Positions 1,274-44,300 of a stretch of 64,000 nt of DNA are shown here, one piece after another. The DNA comes from Ostreococcus lucimarinus (Eukaryota): the NCBI GenBank assembly GCA_000092065.1, contig CP000583.1; one strand, given 5' to 3'. The notes beneath the pieces were generated by a model. The model did not search any database. It was not told the origin of the DNA and saw nothing but the letters and a program-made list of their open reading frames with translations. The translations under genes were made by a program, and so were the position numbers. Numbering within the stretch: the stretch's first letter is position 1; each line of letters begins with the position of its first letter.

Positions 1274-2899
1274 CTACAATACACTCGATGACGGCGCGAA
1301 TTCGCCGGCGCTCGCTCGCAAACTAGACGCCCGCGCCATGGCGAGCTCGGGCGTGCGAATCGGCGACAGACCCTTCGCCTTAATCTTCGACGGCTTGAGC
1401 GACGATTCGTACTGCACGTCGTTCGTCTGCGGCGTGACTGACTCGACGTCTTCTTCGCTCTCGTTCCCTGGCAACAACGGCTCGTAGTGCGCCGCCTCTT
1501 CGTCGTCGTCAGAATCACTCTCACTCTCGTTCTCGCCGTTGTCATCGCGAGGCGACATCTCTTGTCGAGGCAACCACACGTGCACGCGTCCAGCGAGCCA
1601 CGCCACGCGCCACGCGTTCAGCGCCAACTTCGCCGTCCAAATGCCCTTCAGACTTACCAGCGGGCGATTCGCGAGATACAGCGTCGGCAAGAAAACCAAA
1701 CCAACCCCGGTGGCCATGACTTCGCGAACGAACGAGAAACTGTGCGTGGCGTAGATGAATCCATCATACACGAAAACCGCCGCGTTGATCGGCTGCGCGA
1801 GCACGAGCACTCGCCACACCCCCGAGCCGAGCAGCGCCTCTTTCGTTTTCGCGTCGCGCGTGAACACGCTCGGAATCGCCGATTCGCCCGCCACGAGCGC
1901 GGCGCTGAAGACGAATCCGGTGACGACGCCCCACGCGACGAGCGTGTGCGACAATCGCACGAGCTCATCCTTTCGACCGGCGCCGAACAAACGCGACCCG
2001 ATCACCGTCGCGCACGTCGCGAATCCGTCGACGACGTACGAGCACACCATCCACAGCGACACGACGATGTGGTGCGCCGCCAATCCGCTCGGCTCCAAGT
2101 TCCTCGCGGCGACGACCACCGCGACGAAGAACGAGCTCTGCAACAAAATCGACCGCGCCACCATGCTCGCGCCGTTCGCCAAAAATCCAAACGTCTCCGC
2201 CGCGCCCAACCGTCTCGCCGACGTCGCTCGCGGCGCGAGCGGCTCGTCCCAACCTCGCGGCGTCGTCGTCGACACCAACCACCACCCCAATCCCGCCTGC
2301 GCGACGCTCACCGCGAACGTTCCGACGCCGATCCACCGCATCTTCGCCGCGTCTCCCCTCCCCAGCCCCAGCGCCGCGAGCGTCGCCGCCGCGTCCGCCG
2401 CCGCCTTTCCCGCCGACCACCGCGTCGCCGTCTCCACCCTGCCGATCCCGCACACCGTCCCCATCGCGCTCTCGAACGCCATCGCGAACGGCGTCGCGCC
2501 CAGGACCCACGGGAACATCTCGTTCGCCAGCGCCGCGACTTCCGGCGTCAACCGAAACGCGCCTCGCGCGCTCGGCGTCAGCGTCGCCGCGCACGCGATC
2601 GCGCTCGCCGTCCCGCTCACCAGCGCCAGCGCCATCGCCAGCGCCGCGCACATCCGCGCGCGCTCGCGATCGTTCGCGCCCGCGCGCGCGCCGACCTCGG
2701 CCGCGACGCCGTCGGCGAGAAAGTTGAGCGCGCCCGCGCTCAGCCGCGCCACCGCGCGCGCGACGCCGAACGCCGCCTGCGCGTCGCTCGACGCGCGCGC
2801 GCCCACGAGCGCGAGCTGGAGCGCCTGCGACAGCGGCGCGGCGACGCATCGCGCCGCGCCGGCGAGCGAGACGCGCGCGAGGACGCCGCGGCGCGGCAT
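1274..2899 (-). CDS. MATE (multidrug and toxic compound extrusion) family efflux transporter.
   Basis: The product is a ~540 aa polytopic membrane protein with MATE-like conserved blocks (…FGAGRKDEL…, …VFVYDGFIYATHSFSFV…). The ATG at 2899 is the first M after the Arg-rich, low-complexity upstream part of the long ORF 1274..3823. The acidic C-terminal tail is typical of eukaryotic MATEs. Confidence 0.7.
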   Translation of the reverse strand: MPRRGVLARVSLAGAARCVAAPLSQALQLALVGARASSDAQAAFGVARAVARLSAGALNFLADGVAAEVGARAGANDRERARMCAALAMALALVSGTASAIACAATLTPSARGAFRLTPEVAALANEMFPWVLGATPFAMAFESAMGTVCGIGRVETATRWSAGKAAADAAATLAALGLGRGDAAKMRWIGVGTFAVSVAQAGLGWWLVSTTTPRGWDEPLAPRATSARRLGAAETFGFLANGASMVARSILLQSSFFVAVVVAARNLEPSGLAAHHIVVSLWMVCSYVVDGFATCATVIGSRLFGAGRKDELVRLSHTLVAWGVVTGFVFSAALVAGESAIPSVFTRDAKTKEALLGSGVWRVLVLAQPINAAVFVYDGFIYATHSFSFVREVMATGVGLVFLPTLYLANRPLVSLKGIWTAKLALNAWRVAWLAGRVHVWLPRQEMSPRDDNGENESESDSDDDEEAAHYEPLLPGNESEEDVESVTPQTNDVQYESSLKPSKIKAKGLSPIRTPELAMARASSLRASAGEFAPSSSVL

Positions 2900-2936
2900 C
2901 GCGCGTCGGCGTCTGACCGTCACACCGCGACGCGGA

Positions 2937-4189
2937 TGACGGCGCGCGCGCGACGCGACGCGCGCGACGACGACGGCGACGCGCGCGACGACGCGCGCCG
3001 GACGCGTTCGAGCGACGACGCGCGCCGGATGCGCGTCGCGAGGCGAAGACTGGACGAAGGCGCGCCCGCGGCTCGAACGACGGCGGCGCGCGTCGACGCC
3101 GCGCGGCGCGCGATCGGACGCGCGATCGCGCGCGCGCTCGATCAATTGGGCGCGTTCGAGCGCGGCGCGACGAAGCTCGTCGGGTTCGGCGCGGGATGGC
3201 TCGCGGTGCGCGCGCCGGCGGCGGCGTGCGGGTGCGCGGCGGGCGCGTACGGCGGCGGTTTGGCGGCGTGCGGCGCGTGCGCGCTGGGCGCGGCTTGGGT
3301 CGCGGCGCGAGGACCGATCAGGGCGGTGAAAGATTTGGTGATCGGGATGGCGCTGAGCGTGTTGCCGGCGGCGCTGACGGCGACGAGCGCGCTGAGCGCG
3401 TGGAGACGGGGGGCGACGACGCTGGACGGCGAGCGGACGAACGCGATGAGCGCGGACGCGGCGAGCGCGGACGCGATATCGGTCGTGGGACTGGCGCGCG
3501 CGCACTTTAGGTTTGATTTGATGGGAGAGCATCACGCCGCGCTGCCCGCGGAGGATGAGAAATACATGTACAAGGCTGGGGCGGAGGCGACGGGGACGGT
3601 TTGCGCGGTGCCGGTGACGTACGACGGATGGACGCGCGCGAACGCGGTGCCGCTGTGGTACGTGTGCGATAACGATTGGGCGGGGCACAGGGATTGCACC
3701 CAGGCGTACGAAGGCGATTACGACGCGCGCCGCGGGTGGTACGGGCTGCGTCCTTTGCGCAAGTGCTTGCGAGCGCCGCTCGACGCGCTCGACGCCGGCG
3801 CGACGGAGCTGCATTTTTTGCATTTGGATTTTCAGCAGTCATTCGAGCGCAAACACGCGCTGAGCGAGGGGGCGCTGATGCGTGCGAGCGTGCAGCACCA
3901 AGTCTCCATCGATCTCTCCGCGCCGCGCGTGTACTGGAACCCGATTCAAGAGCCGTGTTGCGCCGCGCTCGCCAAGGAGGACGACGCGCTCCTGACGGCG
4001 GTGACCGTCCTGAGCGTCTTACCGCTCGCGTACCTCGTCTATCGCGACATCTTGGAGGCGTGGAAAAAGAGGATCAACGTGGAGAGCACGAAGCGGGCGT
4101 TTTACACGCGCGCTGAGCTTTTGGGCGCGTCCCGGTTGAGCGGGGCGTCCCGCCGAGCGCCGCACTCGTCGACTCGTCGGCGGTCATGA
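2937..4189 (+). CDS. Hypothetical protein. The N-terminal half is hydrophobic and the C-terminal half is conserved-looking but unassigned (LWYVCDNDWAGHRDCTQAY…).
   Basis: This is the 3' portion of the long + ORF 1487..4189. From the ATG at 2937 the codon third positions are strongly G/C and use the same NNG preferences as neighbouring bona fide genes. I recognise no domain. Confidence 0.45.
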
Positions 4190-21023: not shown

Positions 21024-22776
21024 ATGCTGCTGCTGTTCGAGACCCCGGCGGGGTACTCGCTGTTCAAGGTCAAGGCCGAGAAGAAGCTCCAGGACGCGGA
21101 GGTGCGTGCGACGCGCGGTGACGACGACGCGACGCGACGCGACGCGACGCGAGCGCGCGCGAAAAGGCGCGCGCGATCGACGCGAAAGGCGGTGGGACGC
21201 GCGACGCGCGCGCGGGCGGCGGTCGACGACGCGGGACGCGCGACGCGCGAGGGGCGCGACGGTCGTGGACGCGGGACGACGCGAGGGAGGACGCGCGGGC
21301 GGGCGCGCGCGGACAAAAGGGCGGGAGTCGATTCGCGAGGGAATTGGCGAATTGGGGATTGGCTGGCGAGGAAGACGCGACGCGAGGACGAGGGACTGAC
21401 GATGCGCGCGCGCGCGAACGTGAACGCAGAAGTTGCAAGATGCTTTCAGCACGGTGGAGGGGGCGAAGAAGATGGTGTCGATGAAGGCGTTTAGTAAGTT
21501 TGAGAATACGACGGAGGCGCTCGCGGCGGCGGCGACGCTGGTGGATTCCAAAGTCGGGAAGAACTTGAAAAAGTTTTTGTCGAAACACGCCGAGGGGGAG
21601 ACTTTGGCGGTGGCGGACTCTAAACTCGGCGCGGCGATCAAAGAGAAGCTGGGTATTAACTGCGTCGCCGATAGTGGGGTTATGGAACTCATGCGCGGCG
21701 TGCGTTACCAGCTCAACGAGTTGATCGGAGGGTTGACGGATGCCGATCTCGCGCCGATGGCTTTGGGTTTGTCTCACTCCTTGTCGCGATATAAGCTCAA
21801 GTTTTCTCCGGATAAGGTTGATACCATGGTTATTCAAGCCATCGGCTTGCTCGACGAACTCGACAAGGAATTGAACACGTATTCCATGCGCGTGCGCGAG
21901 TGGTACGGGTGGCACTTCCCCGAGCTCACGAAGATCATCGCGGATAACATGCAGTACGCCAAGGCTGCGAAACTCATGGGTGATCGCGCGAAGGCGGCGG
22001 GGATCGACTTCTCTGGTATTCTCGATGAAGACGTCGAACAAGAGGTAAAAGACGCCGCCATCATTTCCATGGGGACGGAAATTTCCGAAGAAGATTTGAG
22101 CAACATTGGACAGTTGGCCGACCAAGTCATCTCCTTGAGCGAGTACCGTGCGCAACTGTACGATTATCTGAAGGCTCGAATGAACGCCATCGCGCCCAAC
22201 CTGACGGTGCTCGTCGGCGAACTCGTCGGCGCTCGTCTCATCTCCCACGCGGGTTCGTTGATGAACCTCGCCAAGCACCCGGCGTCTACGGTGCAAATTT
22301 TGGGAGCGGAAAAGGCTCTTTTCCGCGCGCTCAAGACCAAGCATGAAACTCCAAAGTATGGTTTGATCTATCATGCCTCACTCATCGGCCAAGCGGCGCC
22401 CAAGTTCAAGGGGAAAATTTCTCGCGTCTTGGCGGCGAAGTGCGCGTTGTCGATTCGCGTCGACGCTCTTGGGGAATCCTCCGAGGCGACGATTGGCGTT
22501 GAAGCGCGCGAAAAGGTCGAGGCACGATTACGACAGCTTGAAGGCAAGACGCTTGGCGAAGCTTCTGGCGTCAAGAAGATGTCTGGAGACATAAAGAAGC
22601 ACGACAAGGACCGCAACGCGGACGCGCCGGCGCTTCTCACCGCGCCGCGTTCGTACAATCCGGATAAGGATGCGACGAAGAAGGAGAAAAAGGAGAAGAA
22701 AGATAAGAAAGAGAAGCGTAAGAGCGAAGGCGACTCTCCAAAGTCTTCGAAGAAGAGCAAGAAGAACAAAGATTAA
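21024..22776 (+). CDS. NOP58: Box C/D snoRNP protein Nop58 (NOP5). The gene has two exons, join(21024..21101, 21430..22776), and a C-terminal KKE/D repeat tail.
   Basis: Exon 1 encodes MLLLFETPAGYSLFKVKAEKKLQDAE, the canonical Nop58 N-terminus. Exon 2 continues KLQDAFSTVEGAKKMVSMKAFSKFENT… through the NOP and Nop domains. The tail …KKEKKEKKDKKEKRKSEGDSPKSSKKSKKNKD distinguishes Nop58 from Nop56. Confidence 0.85.
21102..21429 (+). other. Spliceosomal intron of NOP58 (328 nt, phase 0), GTGCGT…CTGAC(N~28)CAG.
   Basis: The donor gag|GTGCGTgcg is at 21102. The branch-like sequence gggaCTGACgatg is ~30 nt upstream of the acceptor aacgCAG|AAG at 21429. The split reconstitutes the conserved Nop58 N-terminus, which is otherwise missing from the ORF. 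Confidence 0.75.
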
Positions 22777-22928: not shown

Positions 22929-24269
22929 CTACGTATCTTCCGAAATCGAAAGCCACTGCGTGAAGATCGCTTTTTTGCCGGAGACTACGGGTTGCGCCTC
23001 GTGCAGCGATCGCATCGCCTCTTGTCCGTTTTCTCCCACGTTCCAAAACAAGATGGCTCGCCCGCGTTTCGGGAACACTCGAATCCCAAGCGTCGTCGAA
23101 TCGCACCCACAAAGCGGCACACACTTCGGAAAGAACGTCGCCCCGCCTTCTTCAGGCTCTTGAAGATAGCACATGAACGTCATCGATCTTTTGAGACTGC
23201 CCGCTCTGTTGTCGTAATGCGCCGTATATCGCTCAGTTGGACCGTACTGAACTATTTGCATCGGTTCGTGTTGATACATGACCTTGACATTTTTTCGTCG
23301 CTCGACGATCAACGGCAGACGAATCGCGGCTTGAATCCTGCGCTCGATTTCGAGAACCAAATCGTCGTGCGCCCGAGCCCCGGTGAGAAAAGTAGACGTC
23401 GAAGTCCGACCTTCCGAAAGTTTCCCGTCCGTCACGCGCGATCGCTGCATACTTGGACGCGCGATCTCAATCAATTGATCCCCCTCTTCTTCGCTCAAGA
23501 AATCTTCGAGCACGAACAAGAGACAGTCGTTTGACAGAACGCGAACGCTCGACGCGACTTGGGGCGGCGGCTTCGATCGGTGTCGCGAGACTCGCAACTC
23601 GCTCATCCAAACCTCGACGACGAATTCGTCGTCGAGGTTTCCGAGCGCGTGCAAGTCGTCGGCAAGATTGAACACGTGCTTGATTCCCCACATATCACCC
23701 TCGCGGTCGAACCTGCGATCGAAGAAAGTCTCAAAGTGCCGCTCGTCGTTCGCCGCGCCGATGAAGGTCACGCTCAACGCCGCCTCCACCGCGTGCGCGC
23801 GCGCCGCATCGCGCGACCTCTGCACGTACACCGACACCGAATCAGCGACGCCATCGTCACCCGCGCGCATCACGAATCGCCATCCAATCTTCGTTCGCTT
23901 CCCGTCGCACACGAAGGCTTGAAACTCGGGAGATCGCCGTTCCGCCTCCGCCGCCGTCGGACGCGCCACTCGCCATCGCACCCGATCCCCTCCCTCGCGT
24001 CCATCTTCATCGTATTCCACCACCGCTCGCAGCTTCCCGTCCCCTCGCGCGCTCTCCCGCGCCGCGTCCGATCGCGCCGCGTCCGATCGCGCCGGCGCGC
24101 AATCGACCGCGCCGCGCGTCACGACGAGACACCGCTCGCCCCTCGACGGCACGTCCACCCCTCCCCGCTCCCGTCGTCGCCCCGACCGCGTCCGCCCGAG
24201 TCCGCCCGTCGACGCGCTCGCCGCGATGTCCCTCGCGCGCGCGTCCCGCGTCGACATTCCCGCCCCCAT
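22929..24269 (-). CDS. Prolyl 4-hydroxylase alpha-like 2-oxoglutarate/Fe(II) dioxygenase with an N-terminal MATH/TRAF-like domain.
   Basis: The C-terminal P4Hc core reads …YTAHYDNR…GGATFFPK…GRAILFWNVGENG…HEAQPVVSGKKAIFTQWL…. The N-terminal region …FQAFVCDGKRTKIGWRFVMRAGDDG…VSVYVQ…AALSVTFIGAANDE…WGIKHVF…LDDEFVVEVWM has MATH-domain spacing. The start at 24269 is uncertain. Confidence 0.7.
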   Translation of the reverse strand: MGAGMSTRDARARDIAASASTGGLGRTRSGRRRERGGVDVPSRGERCLVVTRGAVDCAPARSDAARSDAARESARGDGKLRAVVEYDEDGREGGDRVRWRVARPTAAEAERRSPEFQAFVCDGKRTKIGWRFVMRAGDDGVADSVSVYVQRSRDAARAHAVEAALSVTFIGAANDERHFETFFDRRFDREGDMWGIKHVFNLADDLHALGNLDDEFVVEVWMSELRVSRHRSKPPPQVASSVRVLSNDCLLFVLEDFLSEEEGDQLIEIARPSMQRSRVTDGKLSEGRTSTSTFLTGARAHDDLVLEIERRIQAAIRLPLIVERRKNVKVMYQHEPMQIVQYGPTERYTAHYDNRAGSLKRSMTFMCYLQEPEEGGATFFPKCVPLCGCDSTTLGIRVFPKRGRAILFWNVGENGQEAMRSLHEAQPVVSGKKAIFTQWLSISEDT

Positions 24270-24575
24270 CCCGCGCGACGCGCGTCCTCGCGCGAGACCG
24301 AGACCGACTTATTTCGTCCGATCGCGCGCCGATCGCGCGAATCGTCGTCGCCCGCGCCCGCGCCCGCGCGCGCCGTCGCGTCGTCGTCGCGCTCGGATCG
24401 CGCGCCGCGTTTTTTTCGCGCGCGCGCGTCGGTCTTCGCGCCGCGAATCCGCGCGCGCGCGTCGCGATCTCGCGCCGCGCGCGCCTCGGATGCGTCAACG
24501 TCGAGCGTCGAACTCGTCGGTTTGTATTCCGCGTCGACGATCGAGGGCGACCGCGGCACAGTCGCGCGCGAAGGA

Positions 24576-27500
24576 ATGGCGACCGAAACGGACGAGCGCG
24601 CGTCGATCGAGCGCGCGCTGACGTCGCTCGCGCTGACGGACGACGCGGCGCTGGAGCGCGTGCTCGAAAAGCTGCTGCCGAGCGCGATCGACGCGCTCGC
24701 GACGACGCATCCGAACAATGTCGCGAAAATCATGGATCTGCTGAGACACATCAATAAGCGCGTGAACGCGACGACGACGATCGGGTTGCCGCTGGAGAGG
24801 ATGGTGGACGCGTATTTGACGACGACGAACGCGATGGTGCGGAATTTTGCGCTGGTGTACGCGGAGAAGGCGTTTGAGAGGGCGGACGCGGAGACGCGGG
24901 AGATTCAAATCGCGCGAGCGTGTCGAGGGGCGTCGAGACGGTCGAGTGAACAGGCGGATATGGTGTTTCGAATGGCGATGCAGGCGCTGGGGGAGCTTTC
25001 GACGAGAGATCCGAGGCGCGATGTGGAATTTTTGAGCGATGATGACGATCGGAAGTTGTTTTTGAGACGCGCGAGAGATTTTTTCGCGTACTCGCCGAAC
25101 GCCGTGGGAACGAGCGCGAGGACGACACCAAATCGTTTGGAGGCGCATTTATCGGCGTTGGCGGGGGCGTCGATCGGGGTTGAAGGAGCACCGGAGGGAG
25201 CGTTGCGAGCGGCGGCGGAAGCACAGCGAGAAGACGCCGAGAGGAGCGTCGAGGCGCCGACGTTGAGCGCGCCGCCGAGCCTGTCGCCGAGCGCGGTGGA
25301 ACGGATTTTAGGGAAAGGGAAAGCGCCACCTACGCCGGTGGCGTTAGGTAAGCGAAAGTTAAAGCTACTTGAATACATAGCGAGCGCGGAGGTGCTCGAT
25401 CCCGTGCCAGATATCGATATGGACGACGCGGGCGTCGACGATGGCGTCGAGAAGGAGCGCGAGACAAAGAGTAGATTCTTAGTGAGTGGGGCGGAAATGC
25501 TCACGCATTGTCTCATCGCGTCGTGTGATGGTGATCATGAAGTATCCAAACGTGGCGAAGAATTACTCAAGCGACGATGTACGTGGGAGACGAACAAGCC
25601 GATTGTCAACTTGGACGACGGGGCAACGACGAGCGAATTATTCCAACTCTTCCTCGGTTCATCGCTGGACGTGCCGGTGGAGTCTCGCATCTTGCCCGCC
25701 TCGCCGGCGGTGAAATTAAAAATCATGAATTTGCTCACGCGATCCATGGCGGCGGCTGACGCGTTCCCGAAAAATCTCGAGACGGTGAAAATGTGCCTGT
25801 ACGGCGACGGTACGACGACACGATTGAAGGCGTGCGGCATGCAGTTTACCGTATGGATGCTGACTCACGCGACGAGTAAGGAATTACTCGCGTTTGCCCC
25901 TTCGTTAATGAATGGTATGCTCGAAATTTTAGATTCGCGCACCGACGGCTCGAACGAGGGAGATCAGACTGTGACTTTTGCGCAAGAAACTTTGCGCGGA
26001 TTTTGCTATCAAGCACTTTCGCAGCTCGCCGAGCGCGACAAAGTGAGCGTGAATCGAGACGTGTTGCTTGCCGAGCGAGTTTTCGACGCGTTAGAAAGCG
26101 AACCAGATGGCGTGAAATCCTACGTGCAAGAGGCGGCGCGAACGCTAGTTTCGGCGTATCGCGATTCGCCGTCGACGTACGTACAAACGCGAATGGAAGA
26201 ATTGATTTTGAGTGCCATCGAGGACAATGATAACAAGGTCAAGCGTCTCGTCGGTGCGCAATGGGCGACTGAAATGTTTCCGTTCTCACACGTCCCGTCG
26301 CGGTATGCCAGCATTTTAGCCTCGGGGGACGCCAAGCACGAGATGCAAACGCTGGGCCGACGAGGTTTGCAACCGAGCGCGACTCGCAAGACAAAGGACG
26401 ACGCGGTTTTACACATCGAGCGCTGGGACGGGTGCGATCGAGAAGTCACCGCGCGCTCGTGGGTGGATGAGAACGCGATGTTTGTGGATTTAACAAGCGA
26501 CCATTATCGATACATGGAATATCTGGCGTTCTGTCGAGGCGAGACGCCTCGCGTGCTAGAAAAGCACCCACCAGCGTCTTCGTTACTTCGGTATCTCGTC
26601 ATCAAACTTCCTGGCTTGAACGTCGACCCCGCACTACACGCGGCTTTGCTTTTGCCTGAGAACGCCATGATAAGTGCACTGGATTTCGTGAACGCGTGTT
26701 TAAAGAGCGATTATTCCAAGTCGAGAAAGTTGGAGGCGAACGACGTGAAGCTCTACCTCAACTTTTTGAACCGGTGCCTCGTCAAATCGTCGGGACCAGC
26801 CCTCGCGAGCGAAGCCTTACGTAGTTTCATAGACTTGCTCGAGCGTGAACCAGCGTTACTCAGCGAAAAGGCTACCGCGGATGCGATTCTAGTGCGTCTG
26901 AGACACTTCGTGTCTCACACAGATGCAGAGACTCGTCGGCGCGCCGCCAAACTTTGCGGCGTTCTTGTTGGTAATCTTGAGGCCGATGCGAGGGTACCTT
27001 TTATGGATGAATTTCTGTCGCTGTGTAAAGGAGACGAACGTGGCGCTCGTCTGGAGCACCAAGAGGGCGCATTAAGCGCGACTGGCTACATCGTAGGTTC
27101 AGGAAAGATTCCGGATGTCGACGCGCTGCGCGCAATTCAAACCTTTGTCGACTTGGCAAAGAAAGTAGGCAAAGGACAAAGTGCCGAAGCTAACTTGGCG
27201 AGTGTCGCGGCGGAAGCGATCGGTCACGCAGGACTACGTAAGCCCTTGCACGCTGATATCATCGAGGACGCGCTCGACGCAGTGTGTGGCGTTCTGCAAA
27301 ACACAGATCCACACGTCGCCAAGCTAGGCGCTCGAGCCGCTGGACACATCATGCTCACGGATGCAAGTGAAAGTACCGCATCTGCGCTTTTACCGCGGCT
27401 TCTTGCGATGTGCGAGGTGAAACACGATGACACACAGTTCGCCATAGGTGAGGCGGTTGCGTGTGCGTGGGGGGGCGTCGATGTCGACGCCGATCGCGTG

Positions 27501-37476: not shown

Positions 37477-40400
37477 CTACGCGACGATGTCGCCGGGCAA
37501 GCCGAGCTTTTCGACGAGCTTGGGGACGACGGCGCCGTCGTCTTTGTCCACCTCGCCGCGAAGATCGGCGAGTTTGACGCCGGAAGCTTTCAATAACGCG
37601 GGCATTTTGTCGGTGTCGTCGCCGGCGAGCGCTTGCACGCGGGCGAGAACGTGAGCGAAGATGGTGAGGGCGAAACCTTCGGCTAAGATGTACCCGGGGT
37701 CTTCCCCCTCCGGCGTGGCTTTACGAAGGGCATCGGCGAGGGAGGCGAGCGTGCAAGAGCCATCGATAACTGGTCCAGCGAGAGAGGCGGCGATGTGGTC
37801 ACCAGCCTTGGGCAAGTCGCACATGACATCTTCGATGTTGTTGAAGAGCGGCGCAAAACCTTCAATCAACTGAGCGCCAGACATCGGGCCGTCAGAGGCG
37901 GCGAGCGCGCGAACGAGCCCGTACGCAGCCTCCCAGTCCATGTCGCGACGCTCAAAGCTCGTCGTCAAGAAGTATTCGATGAACGCAACGATGCGTCGCG
38001 GGTCCCACGTTGCGATGACCTTAACGGCTTCGCTGGTGTCCTTATCGTCATAAAAGTACTCCGTCGTCTTCTTGCGCTCAGCAATGAAAGCTGCGTCGTC
38101 GACCATGGCCTTCTCCTCCGTCGCCACCTTTGGCACAGGTACCGCCGCAGGCTTAGACTCAGCCGCTGAAAGTGTGCCTCGCGGCTGCGGAATGCTCGAT
38201 CGAGCGTCCATCTCGCGTGCGCCGCCGCCGCCTCTGACATCACCTCCCCCACGCTCGCGCTCGTCGCGCACGCCACTACCACCCGCACCACGTCGATCGC
38301 CACCGCCGAATGCACCTCGCGATTCGGTGCGTTGGAATCCGCCTGATCGATCGTCGCCACCTCGTGGCGCGCCACGGCTCGGGGGACGATCAAAGTCGCC
38401 GCCTCGGCGACTGTCGCTTCGCGGCATGGCACCAAATGAACCAGTGCGCTCGGGGCGACCGCCGGCACGGCGCGTTTGCTCCATGGCTGCGCGTTGTGCG
38501 TCGCGGTGAACGTCTTCAATCTTCTTCGGGCCTTCTTCCTTGCGACGCTCGCGCCACCCCTTGGCGCGAGTGTCCATGACGTCTTGCAACATGAATCGAT
38601 GACGAGAAGACATCTCTTCAGATTTGCTCAACACTTCCATGCGGCGGAAGTACGCATCCATGTACGCCTTGGCTTTTTGGTGATCAAGTTGACCGCCAAC
38701 AGTAGTCATGAGCTTACACAAAGCCTCCACGTCTTCCTCGTTCGGAGTCTTTTCGCCCTCGCCTAGAAGCTTCATGATGCACGTATGCATAATGCGTTCG
38801 GTGAGCATTGACTTTTTGAATAATTCACCGATGAAACGAATGTTACCGAGCATGCGTCTGCGCGCCTGGAGAAGTCTGTCCTCTCTCTTCAGTTGCTTGC
38901 GTCGCTCTTCGAGCGCAAGCTCCTCCTCAGTCTTCGGCTTTGGCGGTTCATCGATTTCACCATCCTCGAGCTCCTTCTCAGTCTCGGACTTTTCTTCACC
39001 CTCTTCACCCTCTTTCTTGTCGTCGTCTTCATCGTCACCCGCTTCAGCCTTGGCGATGGCTTTGTCGCCAGATTCGAACTCTTCTTGGCACTTGTTAAGA
39101 AGTACGCGCTTGAACGTGATAGCTTGTTGTCCCTCCGGCGCAGCGGGATCTAAGAATTCTACGCCCTCGCTCAAGAAGCGATCAGAAAGCACGCGACACA
39201 ACTCGGCGTACAAAGAAGAGAAGGTGGGCTCTTGAAGCGCCTTTTCGAACAATTGTCCGATGAGTCCGACCAAAGTGATGGCTTCGGTGATGCCGACGTC
39301 GAGAAGCTTCTCGAGAAGCTTCTCAAAGTTATCAGGTGTAAGCTTGTTGAGAATCGCCTTGAACGAACGCTGACGTTTCTGTTCTTCATCGTCCACGGTA
39401 CCAATGACGTACTTGTTATCTGTCTTGTGCAACTTCGGGAGCTCGCCTGCTGGGATGCGATATTGCGACTGGTTGTATCCGCCGCCACCGCGACGATCGC
39501 CGCGACGACCACCTTCGCCCGCGGGCAACTGTCGATGCGCCCACTTATCATCTCCTTTTTTACCGTCGTAACCACCGCCACCGCGGCTTCCACCGCCTCG
39601 ACGACCGCCGCCACCGCCGCGACCGCCACCGAACGATTGCACTCCCGGCGGACAAATGAAACCAGGCACGGGCCAGTAGTCAATGTCATCAGGAACGGTC
39701 CAATTCGCTGGCGTTGTTTGTGCGATCGGGGCATCGCGCATGGCTTTGAGCTCATCCACAGTGTACTTGCCATCGGCAGGTTTCGCCGCGAGGGTGAAGT
39801 CTGTAATCGGCGGCGGCAAGCGCGAGCGCTTCACGTCGGCGGCGGATCCAACGTCAGAGCCAGCGTCGGAGCCGATGCTCGAGACAGATTCCGACGTCGC
39901 GAGCTGCACCCCAGCCACGGCTTCGGCGAGCTCCTCGACGACTTTGTGCTTGGGCGGTTCGGGCGCCTTGGGCGCTTCCTCTTGCTTGGGAGGCTGCGGC
40001 TTGGGCGCTTCGGGAGCCTTGCGCAAAATGTCCGCCGCCGTCGGCGCCACGGGTTTCACCGGCGCCGGCGCGGGTGCCGGCACTTCCGCGGCTTTCGGTG
40101 CGACCGGTTCGGGCGCGGGCGCGGGCGCGGGCGGCGCCGCGGGCTTGGCCGCCATCGCCGCAAAGTTGATCGGCGGCGGCACCGCCGGCGCGGACGCGGC
40201 CGGCGCGACTGGCGCCGCCGGCGCCGCCGGCGCCGGCGATGCGACACCCGCAGGCGCCGCCGCTGCGACAGCAGCGGGCGACGCGCTCGCCGCGGGAGGC
40301 GTCGACGACACCGGCTTCTCAACCTTGACCTCTTGCTTCGTCTTCGGGTTAACAATCTTGATCGCCTTGCTCGCCACCTTTGTCGGCGGCGTCGACGGCG

Positions 40401-40827
40401 TCGACGGCGGTTTGATCCCCGGCGGCTTCGCGTACGCCGGCATTCCCATCGGTGGCATTCCCATCATCATCCCCGGATGAAACGGCGCTCCTCCCTGCAC
40501 GAACATCTGCCCCGGAGCCATCCCCGGCGCGCCCGGCTTCCCGCCCGGCGGCATCATCCCCATCATCGGTCCTCCCGGCATCGGTCGACCCCCCGGCGGC
40601 ATCCCCGGCATCCCCATTCCCGGTCCTCCCACCCCGGGCTTTCCTCCCCCGCCCTTCGCCATGTTCATCGTCCCGAACATGAACTGTTGCGGCGGCATGC
40701 CGCTCCCCGCCGCGCTCGCGATGACCTTCTTCTCCTCCTCCGTTCCCTTCGCCCCCCCCCCGCTCGCGTTCCCGCGCGGTTGCGGCACTCCCGGCGCCTG
40801 ATTACGATTCGGCATCGCGCCCGACAT
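37477..40827 (-). CDS. EIF4G: Eukaryotic translation initiation factor 4G (eIF4G).
   Basis: The N-terminus is Pro/Gly/Ala-rich with a 4E-binding-like KYTVDELKAM. A MIF4G domain follows (…FKAILNKLTPDNFEKLLEKLLDVGI…LIGQLFEKALQEPTFSSLYAELC…), and there is a C-terminal MA3 domain (…VKVIATWDPRRIVAFIEYFLTTSFERRDMDWEAAYGLV…). Confidence 0.85.
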   Translation of the reverse strand: MSGAMPNRNQAPGVPQPRGNASGGGAKGTEEEKKVIASAAGSGMPPQQFMFGTMNMAKGGGGKPGVGGPGMGMPGMPPGGRPMPGGPMMGMMPPGGKPGAPGMAPGQMFVQGGAPFHPGMMMGMPPMGMPAYAKPPGIKPPSTPSTPPTKVASKAIKIVNPKTKQEVKVEKPVSSTPPAASASPAAVAAAAPAGVASPAPAAPAAPVAPAASAPAVPPPINFAAMAAKPAAPPAPAPAPEPVAPKAAEVPAPAPAPVKPVAPTAADILRKAPEAPKPQPPKQEEAPKAPEPPKHKVVEELAEAVAGVQLATSESVSSIGSDAGSDVGSAADVKRSRLPPPITDFTLAAKPADGKYTVDELKAMRDAPIAQTTPANWTVPDDIDYWPVPGFICPPGVQSFGGGRGGGGGRRGGGSRGGGGYDGKKGDDKWAHRQLPAGEGGRRGDRRGGGGYNQSQYRIPAGELPKLHKTDNKYVIGTVDDEEQKRQRSFKAILNKLTPDNFEKLLEKLLDVGITEAITLVGLIGQLFEKALQEPTFSSLYAELCRVLSDRFLSEGVEFLDPAAPEGQQAITFKRVLLNKCQEEFESGDKAIAKAEAGDDEDDDKKEGEEGEEKSETEKELEDGEIDEPPKPKTEEELALEERRKQLKREDRLLQARRRMLGNIRFIGELFKKSMLTERIMHTCIMKLLGEGEKTPNEEDVEALCKLMTTVGGQLDHQKAKAYMDAYFRRMEVLSKSEEMSSRHRFMLQDVMDTRAKGWRERRKEEGPKKIEDVHRDAQRAAMEQTRRAGGRPERTGSFGAMPRSDSRRGGDFDRPPSRGAPRGGDDRSGGFQRTESRGAFGGGDRRGAGGSGVRDERERGGGDVRGGGGAREMDARSSIPQPRGTLSAAESKPAAVPVPKVATEEKAMVDDAAFIAERKKTTEYFYDDKDTSEAVKVIATWDPRRIVAFIEYFLTTSFERRDMDWEAAYGLVRALAASDGPMSGAQLIEGFAPLFNNIEDVMCDLPKAGDHIAASLAGPVIDGSCTLASLADALRKATPEGEDPGYILAEGFALTIFAHVLARVQALAGDDTDKMPALLKASGVKLADLRGEVDKDDGAVVPKLVEKLGLPGDIVA

Positions 40828-41363
40828 CTCTCGAGTCGTCCCTCGCGTCTCCGCGCCCTCCGCGCGCGTCGCGCGCGCCGATCGATCGCCGACGCTCGCC
40901 TCGCCGCCGCCGATCGACGCGCCGCGCGCCGTCGCTCGCCGTCGCTCGCGGTCGCTCGCGTCCGCCGAGTCGTCGCGCGCTCGGATCGTCGTCGACCGAT
41001 CGGCGCTCGCGTCGAAGTCGGACGTGCGCGAGACGCGCCGTCGTTCTGCCGTCGCCGCGCCGCGCGCGCGTCGCCTCGTCGTCGGGCGAGGTCAAAACGC
41101 TCGGTGATTAGGGTCACGCGCGCACATGGCCTCGCGCGCGTCGAGACTACGGCGTCGCGCGTCCTCGTGCGTTTATCTCGATCGACGCGCGCCGTCGATC
41201 GCGGTCGCGCGATCGATCGACGCCTCGAGGGTCGACGCGCGCGCGCGATCGAGGTTCGATCGCGGGTTCGATCGACGCGGGCGCGCGCGGGGCGTCGCGC
41301 GGCGCGGCGCGGCGCGGCGCGGCGCGCGAGACGACGACGCGCGACGACGCGAGGCGACGCGGG

Positions 41364-44300
41364 ATGGACGCGCGCGCGACGTCGAGGGCGTCGGCGTGGA
41401 CGCGCGCGCGCGAGACGCGCGCGAGGGGCGAGCGACGCGCGGCGAGCGGCGACGGCGCGCGCGCGCGGGCGAACGCGCGGCGGCGAGCGACGCGCGCGAC
41501 GCGCGCGCGAGGGGCGGAGCACGCGCTGGACGCGCTGTACCTGGGCGGACGCGCCGAGCGGGACGCGCGCGAGCTCGTGCTGCGGATCGGGGAGAGCGAG
41601 GTGAGGCTGGAGACTGGGAAGATTGGGTTGCAGGCGAACGGCGCGGTGTTCGCGAGCGAGGGGGAGACGGTGCTGTACAACACGGCGTGCGCGTCGAGGG
41701 AGTGCACGGGAGATGGGTCGTTCGTGCCGCTGACGGTGAATTACGCGGAGCGGTTCTCGGCGGCGGGGAGGACGTCGGGAGGGTATAAGAAGCGAGACGG
41801 GGGGTTAAGAGAAAACGAGACGCTCAAGGCGCGATTGGTCGATCGGCCGATACGACCGATGATGTACAAGGGATGGGGATACGAAACGCAGGTTTTGCAG
41901 TGGTTGATGAGTTTTGACGCCGAGCGATCGACGGATGCGCTGGCGATCACGGCGGCGTCGGCGGCGTTGGCGGTGAGCGACATTCCGCTGAAGAAGCCCG
42001 TCGTGGGCGTTCGAGTGGGTCTGATGCCTGGCTCGGATGAACCGGTGGTGAATCCGACGTCGGAACAAATGAAACAATCGAGATTGGACTTGGTGCTCGC
42101 CGGCACGGACGAGGCGGTGCTCATGATTGAGGGCTTTTGCGACTTTTTGACCACGGATGAAATGTTGCGAGCGATTGAAAAGGGCCAAGAGGCGGTGGCC
42201 AAGGCGTGCAAGGAAATTGACGCTTGGGCCGCAACTGTCGCGCCGCAGAAGATGATGCAAAAACTCATCGTGCAGCCCGAGGGCGTGGACGAGGCTGTCG
42301 CTGCGCTCGTGGAGGATGAATTGAAGCAAGCCATCGTCGTTCCGATCAAGCAAGAGCGAGGGGCGATGATTGGCGCCGCCCGCGAACGCGCAGTGGAAGC
42401 TCTTCAAGATGAATTCCAGGTACGTCAGTGGTTGCGCATACGCTGTCTCGCGCGAATCGGCGCTATTTCTCGCGCGAAACCTCGATAAGTCCCGCGCTCT
42501 ACCGAATAGTCGCAGCCGTTTCTCTCGAGAACTTGTTGGTTGCGGCTCAACTGCGAGCGCGTAAAGAAACGTGAATGCTTCGAACGGGCGCCCAGCCCAC
42601 CTTGGTGTCGCAGCCGAGTACTTCTGGATCCGCCCTTTGCACGCATTGCAAATTCTTGACGACGCCGCGAGCGAGACGGAACCGACTGACTTATGTACAC
42701 TTTTTCACACATCGTCGCAGGCTTCCGCCGTAATCAACGCGTGCGGCAAAATTGAGTCACGCGCCCTTCGCGACGTGATCCGAACCAAAGGTCGTCGTCA
42801 AGATGGTCGCACGACGTCGATGATTCGTCCGATTGCGTGCGAGGCGGGTATACTTCCTCGAACGCATGGCAGCTCGTTATTTACTCGCGGCGAAACGCAA
42901 GCCATCGGCGTCGCGACTCTCGGCGGTAGTCAGGATGCTCAGCGTCAAGACGACGTCGAAGCGGGCGAAGACAAACGCTTCATGTTGCACTACTTCTTCC
43001 CTCCGTCATCTGTTGGCGAAACTGGTCGCACGGGTGGCGCATCCCGACGTGAGATTGGTCACGGAAACTTGGCTGAACGCGCGCTCATGCCCATCCTTCC
43101 ATCGGAGGAGGACTTCCCTTTCGTGTGCAAACTGGAAAGCACAATCACGGAAAGTAACGGTTCCTCGTCAATGGCCACTGTCTGCGCGGGCACGCTCGCT
43201 TTGCTCGATGCCGGTGTTCCTATTAAAAGGTGCGGGTTTGGCGACATAGTCGTCGCGGAAATATTTTTCGAAAAAGCCAGGTCCTTAAGAACGCTCTTCG
43301 TTGCGCCGCTTTTGTGGTGTATGGAGAGAGATCGAGTCATAACTTGGCGACATTCAGATGCATAGCGACGCGTTTTGCGTCGTTTATTTGCTGCTGCGCT
43401 AGCGGTTGAACCGTGGAACGGACGATTCTTCAACTGTCCCGCGCTGTATTCAAACGCCGCGCGGAAATTTGTTTCTCGCGTCGCGCTCGCTCTCTCAGTC
43501 ACTGACCTTTTTTTATATTTTCAATTCGCAGGAAAGTCGCGGGTATCGCCATGGGCTTAATTTTGGGTTCTGAAGCCGCGGGCGGTGGCGATGAGCTCGA
43601 GCCCATCGTTCTCACCGATATCTTGGGCTCTGAAGACGCGCTCGGCGACATGGATTTTAAAGTTGCAGGCGACAAGGACGGTATCACCGCGTTCCAGATG
43701 GATATCAAGGTCGAAGGTATCACGATCGATGTCATGAAAACCGCGCTCGAAGAGGCGCAAAAGGGACTCGTGCACATCCTCGGCGAGATGGAAAAATGTG
43801 ACCCTGCGCCCGCGGGCGCCACGAGCAAGTATGCCCCGCGCATCGCTTCCATCGCGGTGCCGGAGAAGTACTTTGGCAAAGTCATCGGTAAGGGTGGGGA
43901 GACCATTCGTTCCATCATGGAGAAGACTGGTGCTGAGAACATCGATGTTAACAAAGAAAAGGAGATGGTGTTTGTCACTGGTGGCGCTGACGCGGACCTC
44001 GATGCGGCGATTCGGATGATCGAGGGCATGATTGTTGAACCAGAGGTGGGTAAAATTTATCGCGGCTGCGTCGTGAAGAAGGTTGTTGAATTCGGCTGCT
44101 TTGTTGAATATTTGCCGGGTCTCGAAGGACTTGTCCATATCAGTGAGCTCGACGTTTCACGCGTGCCAAACGTCTCCGACGTGACGTCCGAAGGAGCGGT
44201 GATGGATGTCAAGATTATCGCGGTCGATAATCGTGGTAAAACCAGTCTGAGTCGCAAAGAAGTTTTATTGGAGGAAAACCCAGAACTCGCCGCGGCCGGT

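Follow-up and report, generated by a model that had tools for sequence, protein, structure and literature searches.

The known role of prolyl 4-hydroxylases (P4Hs) of the collagen and plant type lies in the secretory pathway, where these enzymes build collagen and the cell-wall glycoproteins of plants and algae. The plant and algal members are proteins of ~300 amino acids (aa) that enter the secretory pathway via an N-terminal anchor. Protein-specific prolyl hydroxylation in the cytosol, as in oxygen sensing, is to our knowledge known only from a separate lineage, that of the PHD and PhyA enzymes. Here, we describe a gene of the green picoalga Ostreococcus lucimarinus that joins a P4H domain of the collagen/plant type to an N-terminal module that resembles the MATH domains of SPOP and USP7. 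It lies in a 64,000-nucleotide stretch of contig CP000583.1 (GenBank assembly GCA_000092065.1), which is referred to below as the window. We propose, with a probability that we put at roughly 0.55, that the gene encodes a lipid-anchored P4H whose divergent MATH domain would dock protein substrates at the cytosolic face of a membrane.

The gene is a single ATG-to-stop open reading frame (ORF; 22929..24269, minus strand) of 446 aa in the ORF listing of the window, and all of the strings quoted in the original prediction (GWRFVMRAGDDG, VSVYVQ, AALSVTF, LDDEFVVEV, HYDN, ILFWN, and HEAQPV) are found in its translation. The C-terminal half, in which a clear P4H catalytic domain had been claimed, bears this out. 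It matches Pfam PF13640 (2OG-FeII_Oxy_3) with an E value of 1.7e-13 and 51.8 bits (cutoff, 27), and among solved structures it matches Cr-P4H-1 (E value, 7e-21), a Bacillus anthracis P4H (2.5e-17), human collagen P4H (C-P4H) alpha-2 (6e-12), and the P4H of PBCV-1 (2e-10). With a family hidden Markov model score over the curated threshold and a double-stranded beta-helix closest to solved P4Hs, aa 241 to 446 are, as judged by sequence, a prolyl 4-hydroxylase of the collagen/plant type.

The residues expected of such an enzyme are all in place. E335, Y348, H351, D353, R361, H423, K433, and W439 correspond to Cr-P4H-1 E127, Y140, H143, D145, R161, H227, K237, and W243, respectively, and all eight are invariant in the family alignments; for the iron triad and the lysine, invariance was assessed in 11 full-length relatives and in a 10-sequence catalytic alignment. 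The phmmer alignment to Cr-P4H-1 is gap-shifted in the region from Y348 to D353, and equivalence there was taken directly from RYTAHYD versus KYEPHYD. The “RxS-type” residues named in the original prediction were misassigned because this P4H subfamily uses a lysine: K433 takes the place of Cr-P4H-1 K237, the P4H-family lysine that presumably binds 2-oxoglutarate. In Cr-P4H-1, H143, D145, and H227 are the iron ligands, and Y140, W243, E127, and R161 position the proline (PMC5684110). Since the iron, 2-oxoglutarate, and proline-pocket residues are all invariant, the window enzyme looks catalytically competent.

Identification of the N-terminal module required the family as a whole. The window protein by itself matches Pfam MATH_2 with an E value of 3.9e-4 and 21.1 bits, short of the 32 bits that Pfam sets as its gathering score. 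A phmmer search with the module alone gave no relevant match in PDB and, against 1.84 billion representatives, retrieved orthologous P4Hs and one other protein (P0093) but no canonical MATH protein; P0093 was rejected as a relative, as it is a tandem-repeat protein in which repetition inflates the score. An NCBIfam scan gave no match, and a word-indexed search with an alignment of 10 orthologous modules (A2) recovered one near-identical fragment and nothing else. Given the score of the window protein below the Pfam threshold, it is thus the family profile, and not the single sequence, that carries MATH membership. Profiles built from A2, from A2 plus paralogues (A3), and from these plus three more distant relatives (A5) were searched against 177,635 PDB sequences. 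For A2, the best 11 matches were all the USP7 MATH domain (E value, ~1e-3); for A3, SPOP joined USP7, with no other protein; and for A5, 32 of the 32 best distinct sequences were SPOP or USP7 MATH domains (best E value, 3.3e-6), the next match having an E value of >1. The MATH signal therefore strengthens as family diversity is added.

The A5 alignment to SPOP covers the canonical series of MATH motifs in full: RVRW99RV (the beta1 tryptophan) on SPOP MW36T, S113-P-E-F116 (S-x-x-F) on S-T-F57, GW130RF (W-x-hydrophobic) on W67-C-L, S146-V-Y148-V (S-hydrophobic-Y-L) on S-L-Y87-L, and W194-G-I-K-H-V-F (W-G-hydrophobic-x-x-F) on W131-G-F-K-K-F. An AlphaFold model of aa 75 to 241 is all beta (predicted local distance difference test [pLDDT] score, 74; predicted template modeling score, 0.72) and forms an antiparallel beta-sandwich that can be superimposed on solved MATH domains. 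Two independent fold searches of the model returned MATH domains and no other fold above noise, and in Foldseek its best 50 matches were all SPOP or USP7 (E values as low as 1.3e-6; probability, 1.00). TRAF1/3/6 and meprin A were among the top fold matches, and identity to solved MATH domains was 10 to 21%. This low identity, the single-sequence Pfam score, and the lack of a canonical MATH protein among the phmmer matches are what would be expected if the module were an unrelated, lineage-specific beta-sandwich that came to look like MATH by convergence or model bias, a reading that we consider very unlikely. From profiles and a predicted fold, we conclude that aa 78 to 224 form a divergent but genuine MATH-type domain. 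Domain scans, family profiles, and fold searches thus all support the MATH/TRAF-like domain of the original prediction, and the domain search, whose failure to call MATH it had named as a refutation, did match MATH_2, though under the gathering score.

Any binding of partner peptides would take place in the groove on the beta-sandwich, in which the conservation of hydrophobic positions was read. By profile alignment, window residues Y148, W194, and I196 fall on SPOP Y87, W131, and F133, keeping their aromatic or hydrophobic character; we take Y87 and W131 to be groove residues of SPOP. F102 and F133 of SPOP lie within its substrate-binding domain (PMC12802387). The retained groove character bears on an alternative in which the MATH-like domain does not select substrates, and instead mediates self-association, as in TRAF trimers and meprin oligomers, or regulates or scaffolds the catalytic domain within the same molecule. 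The presence of TRAF1/3/6 and meprin A among the top fold matches fits that idea, as does the absence of the WG tryptophan from some orthologues, and collagen P4H needs its noncatalytic domains for assembly. However, the nearest sequence relatives, SPOP and USP7, have monomeric, peptide-binding MATH domains, the groove character is kept at Y148, W194, and I196, and no coiled coil of the TRAF-trimer type is predicted beside the domain. We regard this alternative as unlikely, albeit one to be taken seriously, and by analogy with SPOP and USP7, we infer that the MATH domain docks substrates.

The extreme N terminus suggests where this would occur. The protein starts with MGAGMSTR, in which Met1-Gly2, a small uncharged residue at position 3, and Ser at position 6 fit the N-myristoylation consensus. 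Other orthologue clades start with MGAALS, MGA[SG]AS, MGVAQS, MGNAKS, or MGQKCS, paralogues start with MGCSQSK or MGCSASK, a further clade starts with MGCRLS, and a Chloropicon relative starts with MGANCGK. A cysteine at position 3 after Met-Gly is typical of dual acylation, as in Src-family kinases, G-alpha subunits, and CDPKs. All clades keep Met-Gly and a small residue at position 6, whereas conservation breaks down over the next ~70 residues, for which disorder is predicted: residues 1 to 70 have pLDDT scores of 24 to 43 in the full-length model and low conservation in the family alignment. Both the model and the alignment lack Met1, so that their positions are one lower than the residue numbers of the protein given here. 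Within this region, an ARSDA-ARSDA direct peptide repeat (aa 59 to 70; 24060-24095, minus strand) is absent from more distant orthologues. No hydrophobic segment suited to act as a signal peptide or anchor was found anywhere in the protein, for which the maximum 19-residue Kyte-Doolittle mean is 1.09; that maximum falls inside the MATH domain, and the N terminus is Arg-rich. Lacking a hydrophobic signal anchor or signal peptide, the window protein falls outside the secretory (type II membrane-anchored) subgroup of P4Hs.

Gly2 thus probably receives a myristoyl group, and this P4H with a MATH domain most likely does not enter the secretory pathway, as predicted from its sequence. The MGxxxS start together with the missing anchor and signal peptide points to a cytosolic, membrane-tethered enzyme. 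Neither feature was part of the original prediction, and together they are likely to change the cellular setting in which the enzyme has to be seen. Two near-identical 442-aa sequences (P0042, whose sources include NCBI, and P0043) start with MSTRDARA, four codons (24258-24269, minus strand) past the start of the MGxxxS motif; public models of the gene probably miss the acylation motif.

The same region could be read in another way, with the first ~75 residues as a transit peptide, possibly starting at Met5, that would direct the P4H to an organelle or another noncytosolic site, the Met-Gly being incidental. The R/A/S/G-rich, disordered character of the N terminus and the Met5 starts of P0042 (NCBI sourced) and P0043 are compatible with this. 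In contrast, Gly2 and the small residue at position 6, unlike the remainder of the region, are conserved between Ostreococcus and Chloropicon; a classical dual-acylation start (MGCSxSK) is seen in the paralogues; and a hydrophobic signal sequence is lacking. We therefore judge organelle targeting to be improbable and retain the cytosolic, membrane-tethered setting.

The fusion is not peculiar to this genome. In 10 clusters of full-length relatives, 37 to 99% identical to the window protein, both halves are aligned. Among these relatives is the RefSeq protein of O. tauri (XP_003077977.2), whose model covers both halves and whose only name is “Oxoglutarate/iron-dependent dioxygenase.” A second, longer paralogue group (640 to 780 aa, with low-complexity inserts) includes Micromonas pusilla CCMP1545 XP_003056161.1, which was also found as an MMETSP transcript (P0148); these long relatives were considered as apicomplexan, PHYb-like proteins, and this was rejected, as they are Micromonas paralogues. 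They have the same MATH-like module, interrupted by an insertion of 75 to 150 aa. In the long paralogues (P0011-P0024 and P0096), this insertion has a conserved cysteine cluster, C-x-C-G-x3-C (e.g., CSCGDESC), that is possibly a small metal-binding knuckle. The catalytic-domain profile search further retrieved more distant members. One is a Chloropicon maureeniae transcriptome protein (P0203) with the same layout. Another is a metagenomic protein (P0205) that matches Pfam MATH_2 (E value, 1.3e-6; 29.1 bits) and MATH (E value, 4.6e-3) beside PF13640, and a third is a model from Parachlorella kessleri that is truncated but still has the DWGL half of the MATH domain. Land-plant P4Hs retrieved by the same profile search have 306 to 311 aa and no N-terminal module. 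The search for the module among orthologous P4Hs, which the original prediction had suggested, thus found it in Ostreococcus, Micromonas, Chloropicon, and Parachlorella and not in the land-plant P4Hs retrieved. No relative was found on the IMG/VR viral contigs scanned, which indicates no link to prasinovirus P4H genes.

Gene order was also informative. The succession ECM29 - P4H - Nop is kept in a metagenomic relative (L001, 7693-9012 and 98-5938) whose P4H protein is 37% identical, which implies long-standing microsynteny in the Mamiellales. Judged by these relatives, the MATH-P4H fusion is an old chlorophyte invention that is conserved across several classes of Chlorophyta, and at least two species (M. 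pusilla and C. maureeniae) transcribe it as a single unit. No link between MATH and P4H appeared in the source names or papers of the literature reached, InterPro architectures being outside its scope, and the one MATH domain placed on P4H relatives by precomputed Pfam annotations was a “faint” MATH_2 in a single metagenomic protein. The architecture is, in the resources reached, undescribed.

Long spurious ORFs are common in GC-rich DNA, and the window provides an example at this very gene: a plus-strand frame is open from 23559 to 24575, antisense to the 5′ half of the P4H gene and across the intergenic region. One could accordingly ask whether the gene model itself is an artifact, with the 5′ half being an untranslated region or a separate gene and the P4H half alone being translated. 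Yet, the 5′ half is conserved as protein (invariant W, F, S, and G) across clades that are 22 to 50% identical, and it gives a confident predicted domain fold. In all relatives the two halves are contiguous, also in the two sequences derived from transcriptomes and in the RefSeq protein of O. tauri, and no in-frame Met near the domain boundary is conserved as a start. We hold such an artifact to be highly improbable. That both domains belong to one protein, as originally predicted, is thus borne out by the ORF layout in orthologue clusters with synteny, by the RefSeq protein, and by the transcriptome-derived proteins. The ATG is preceded by an in-frame stop, and G+C content at third codon positions is 0.61 to 0.87 over the entire ORF.

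The protein has four parts: an MGxxxS signal that is probably myristoylated, a disordered Arg-rich spacer, a divergent MATH domain, and a fully equipped P4H domain. Placed on the cytosolic face of a membrane, it would use its MATH domain in the manner of SPOP, USP7, and the TRAFs, to bind a short linear motif that a substrate or an adaptor carries. A nearby proline of the bound partner would be presented to the catalytic domain and hydroxylated with O2, Fe(II), and 2-oxoglutarate, such that the MATH domain would take the role that the peptide-substrate-binding domain has in collagen P4H. Because the protein combines a MATH domain with a lipid-anchor signal in place of a secretion signal, it probably hydroxylates chosen cytosolic proteins rather than cell-wall proteins.

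Several points weigh against this proposal. The consensus is the whole basis for calling myristoylation; the NCBI-sourced 442-aa sequences, which start at Met5, leave the motif out; and the substrates known for this P4H subfamily are secretory proteins. On the side of the MATH domain, the window protein by itself falls short of the Pfam gathering score (21.1 versus 32 bits), and the structural evidence is an AlphaFold model made from 10 to 11 sequences (pLDDT, 74). Finally, the WG tryptophan is replaced in some orthologues (RG in P0008-P0010 and LV in a Lys/Glu-rich clade), so that a common peptide-binding mode is not guaranteed.

By combining a collagen-type core with a MATH domain and a predicted cytosolic lipid anchor, the enzyme points to regulatory hydroxylation of specific substrates having been reached by a second, independent route. 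The host algae are among the most abundant marine phototrophs, and their growth is iron limited and shaped by oxygen and by carbon/nitrogen status; the enzyme has precisely iron, O2, and 2-oxoglutarate as its cosubstrates. A prolyl hydroxylase would also be added to the short list of effector modules fused to MATH domains, and with its small genome, the single exon of the gene, and its two paralogues, the system makes for a tractable test case. The broadest form of the idea is that green picoalgae (Mamiellophyceae, Chloropicophyceae, and at least one trebouxiophyte) possess an undescribed cytosolic signaling enzyme, a lipid-anchored P4H of the collagen/plant type acting at a membrane on protein substrates selected by MATH. 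Prolyl hydroxylation would then be a regulatory mark in these cells that responds to O2, iron, or 2-oxoglutarate, and it would have an origin independent of both PHD-HIF in animals and PhyA-Skp1 in protists. We offer this broad form tentatively, as a doubtful though attractive possibility.

The features of the gene and its immediate neighbors are collected in Table 1. The P4H and ECM29-like genes are divergent and have a 306-bp upstream region (24270-24575) in common. A 2285-aa plus-strand ORF that begins at 23559 was rejected as real over its first 339 codons, and the ECM29-like protein was taken to start at 24576; as this start gives the 1946-aa length of the orthologue at locus L001, the first 339 codons are an open-frame artifact typical of GC-rich DNA. 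The Nop56/58-like ORF on the other side has a TTG start and matches NOP5NT from profile position 29 onward, which places its true 5′ end before 21433, at an upstream ATG or in a further exon. Elsewhere in the window, G+C content reaches 72.8% in two 2-kb bins (2001-4000 and 40001-42000), compared with ~55 to 65% in the rest.

Table 1. Coordinates in the window of the MATH-P4H gene, its parts, and its neighbors
Feature	Coordinates	Strand	Basis or remarks
Whole coding sequence	22929..24269	-	446 codons plus stop codon at 22929-22931; uninterrupted ORF; full-length orthologues
Start codon and MGAGMSTR (Gly2, Ser6; N-myristoylation-type consensus MGxxxS/T)	24246..24269	-	Start kept in every clade
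Arg/Ala/Ser/Gly-rich region, aa 1-77, weakly conserved, predicted disordered	24039..24269	-	Model pLDDT; family alignment
Divergent MATH/TRAF-C-like beta-sandwich, aa 78-224 (predicted)	23598..24038	-	Signature W99, S113, F116, W130, S146/Y148, W194-G195-I196
W194-G195 codons	23685..23690	-	Family-profile alignment: on SPOP W131-G132 (DWGF strand of MATH domains); also aligned to USP7 DWGF
Interdomain linker, aa 225-240, conserved R-SK...VASS motif	23550..23597	-	Family consensus; low pLDDT at model residues 225-233
P4H catalytic domain (2-oxoglutarate/Fe(II) double-stranded beta-helix), aa 241-446	22932..23549	-	Pfam PF13640; Cr-P4H-1 similarity
H351-Y-D353, HxD iron-ligand pair	23211..23219	-	Cr-P4H-1 H143, D145; invariant in family alignments
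H423, distal iron ligand	23001..23003	-	Cr-P4H-1 H227; invariant in family alignments
K433, predicted 2-oxoglutarate C5-carboxylate binder	22971..22973	-	Cr-P4H-1 K237; invariant in family alignments
Convergent neighbor, Nop56/58-type small nucleolar ribonucleoprotein gene	21433..22776	+	Pfam Nop, E value 1.7e-88; same neighbor in L001
Divergent neighbor, ECM29-like proteasome adaptor, 1946 aa	24576..30416	+	Pfam ECM29_N, E value 3e-114; same neighbor, same length in L001

Compared with Cr-P4H-1 (PDB 2JIG/2JIJ/3GZE) and the plant-type P4Hs, the window protein differs by an N-terminal extension of ~240 aa that includes a MATH domain, by a myristoylation-type start, and by the lack of a hydrophobic segment. 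The collagen P4H alpha subunit and P4H-TM act in the lumen of the endoplasmic reticulum and have accessory domains of a fold other than MATH, and no PDI partner is implied here. The proposed role of the MATH domain would nevertheless be functionally analogous to that of the peptide-substrate-binding domain of collagen P4H or of the EF-hand domain of P4H-TM (PMC7948501). SPOP and USP7/HAUSP, which match the N-terminal module best in both sequence and fold, likewise have a MATH domain ahead of a module by which the bound protein is modified. There, however, the effector is a BTB/CUL3 adaptor or a deubiquitinase instead of a prolyl hydroxylase, identity to the window module is 15 to 21%, and K129 and D130 of the SPOP groove are not kept.

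The predicted setting, an O2- and 2-oxoglutarate-dependent hydroxylation of a specific protein in the cytosol, resembles that of the HIF PHD/EGLN enzymes, of Dictyostelium and Toxoplasma PhyA, and of Toxoplasma PHYb. The last of these has a conserved domain of unknown function, D2, directly upstream of its catalytic domain (PMC6437050); it is a PHD-type enzyme, and its accessory domain is different from that of the window protein. The window catalytic domain does not classify with the PHD (EGLN) subfamily. The MATH-P4H protein stands outside the PHD/PhyA lineage, yet it may work like those enzymes.

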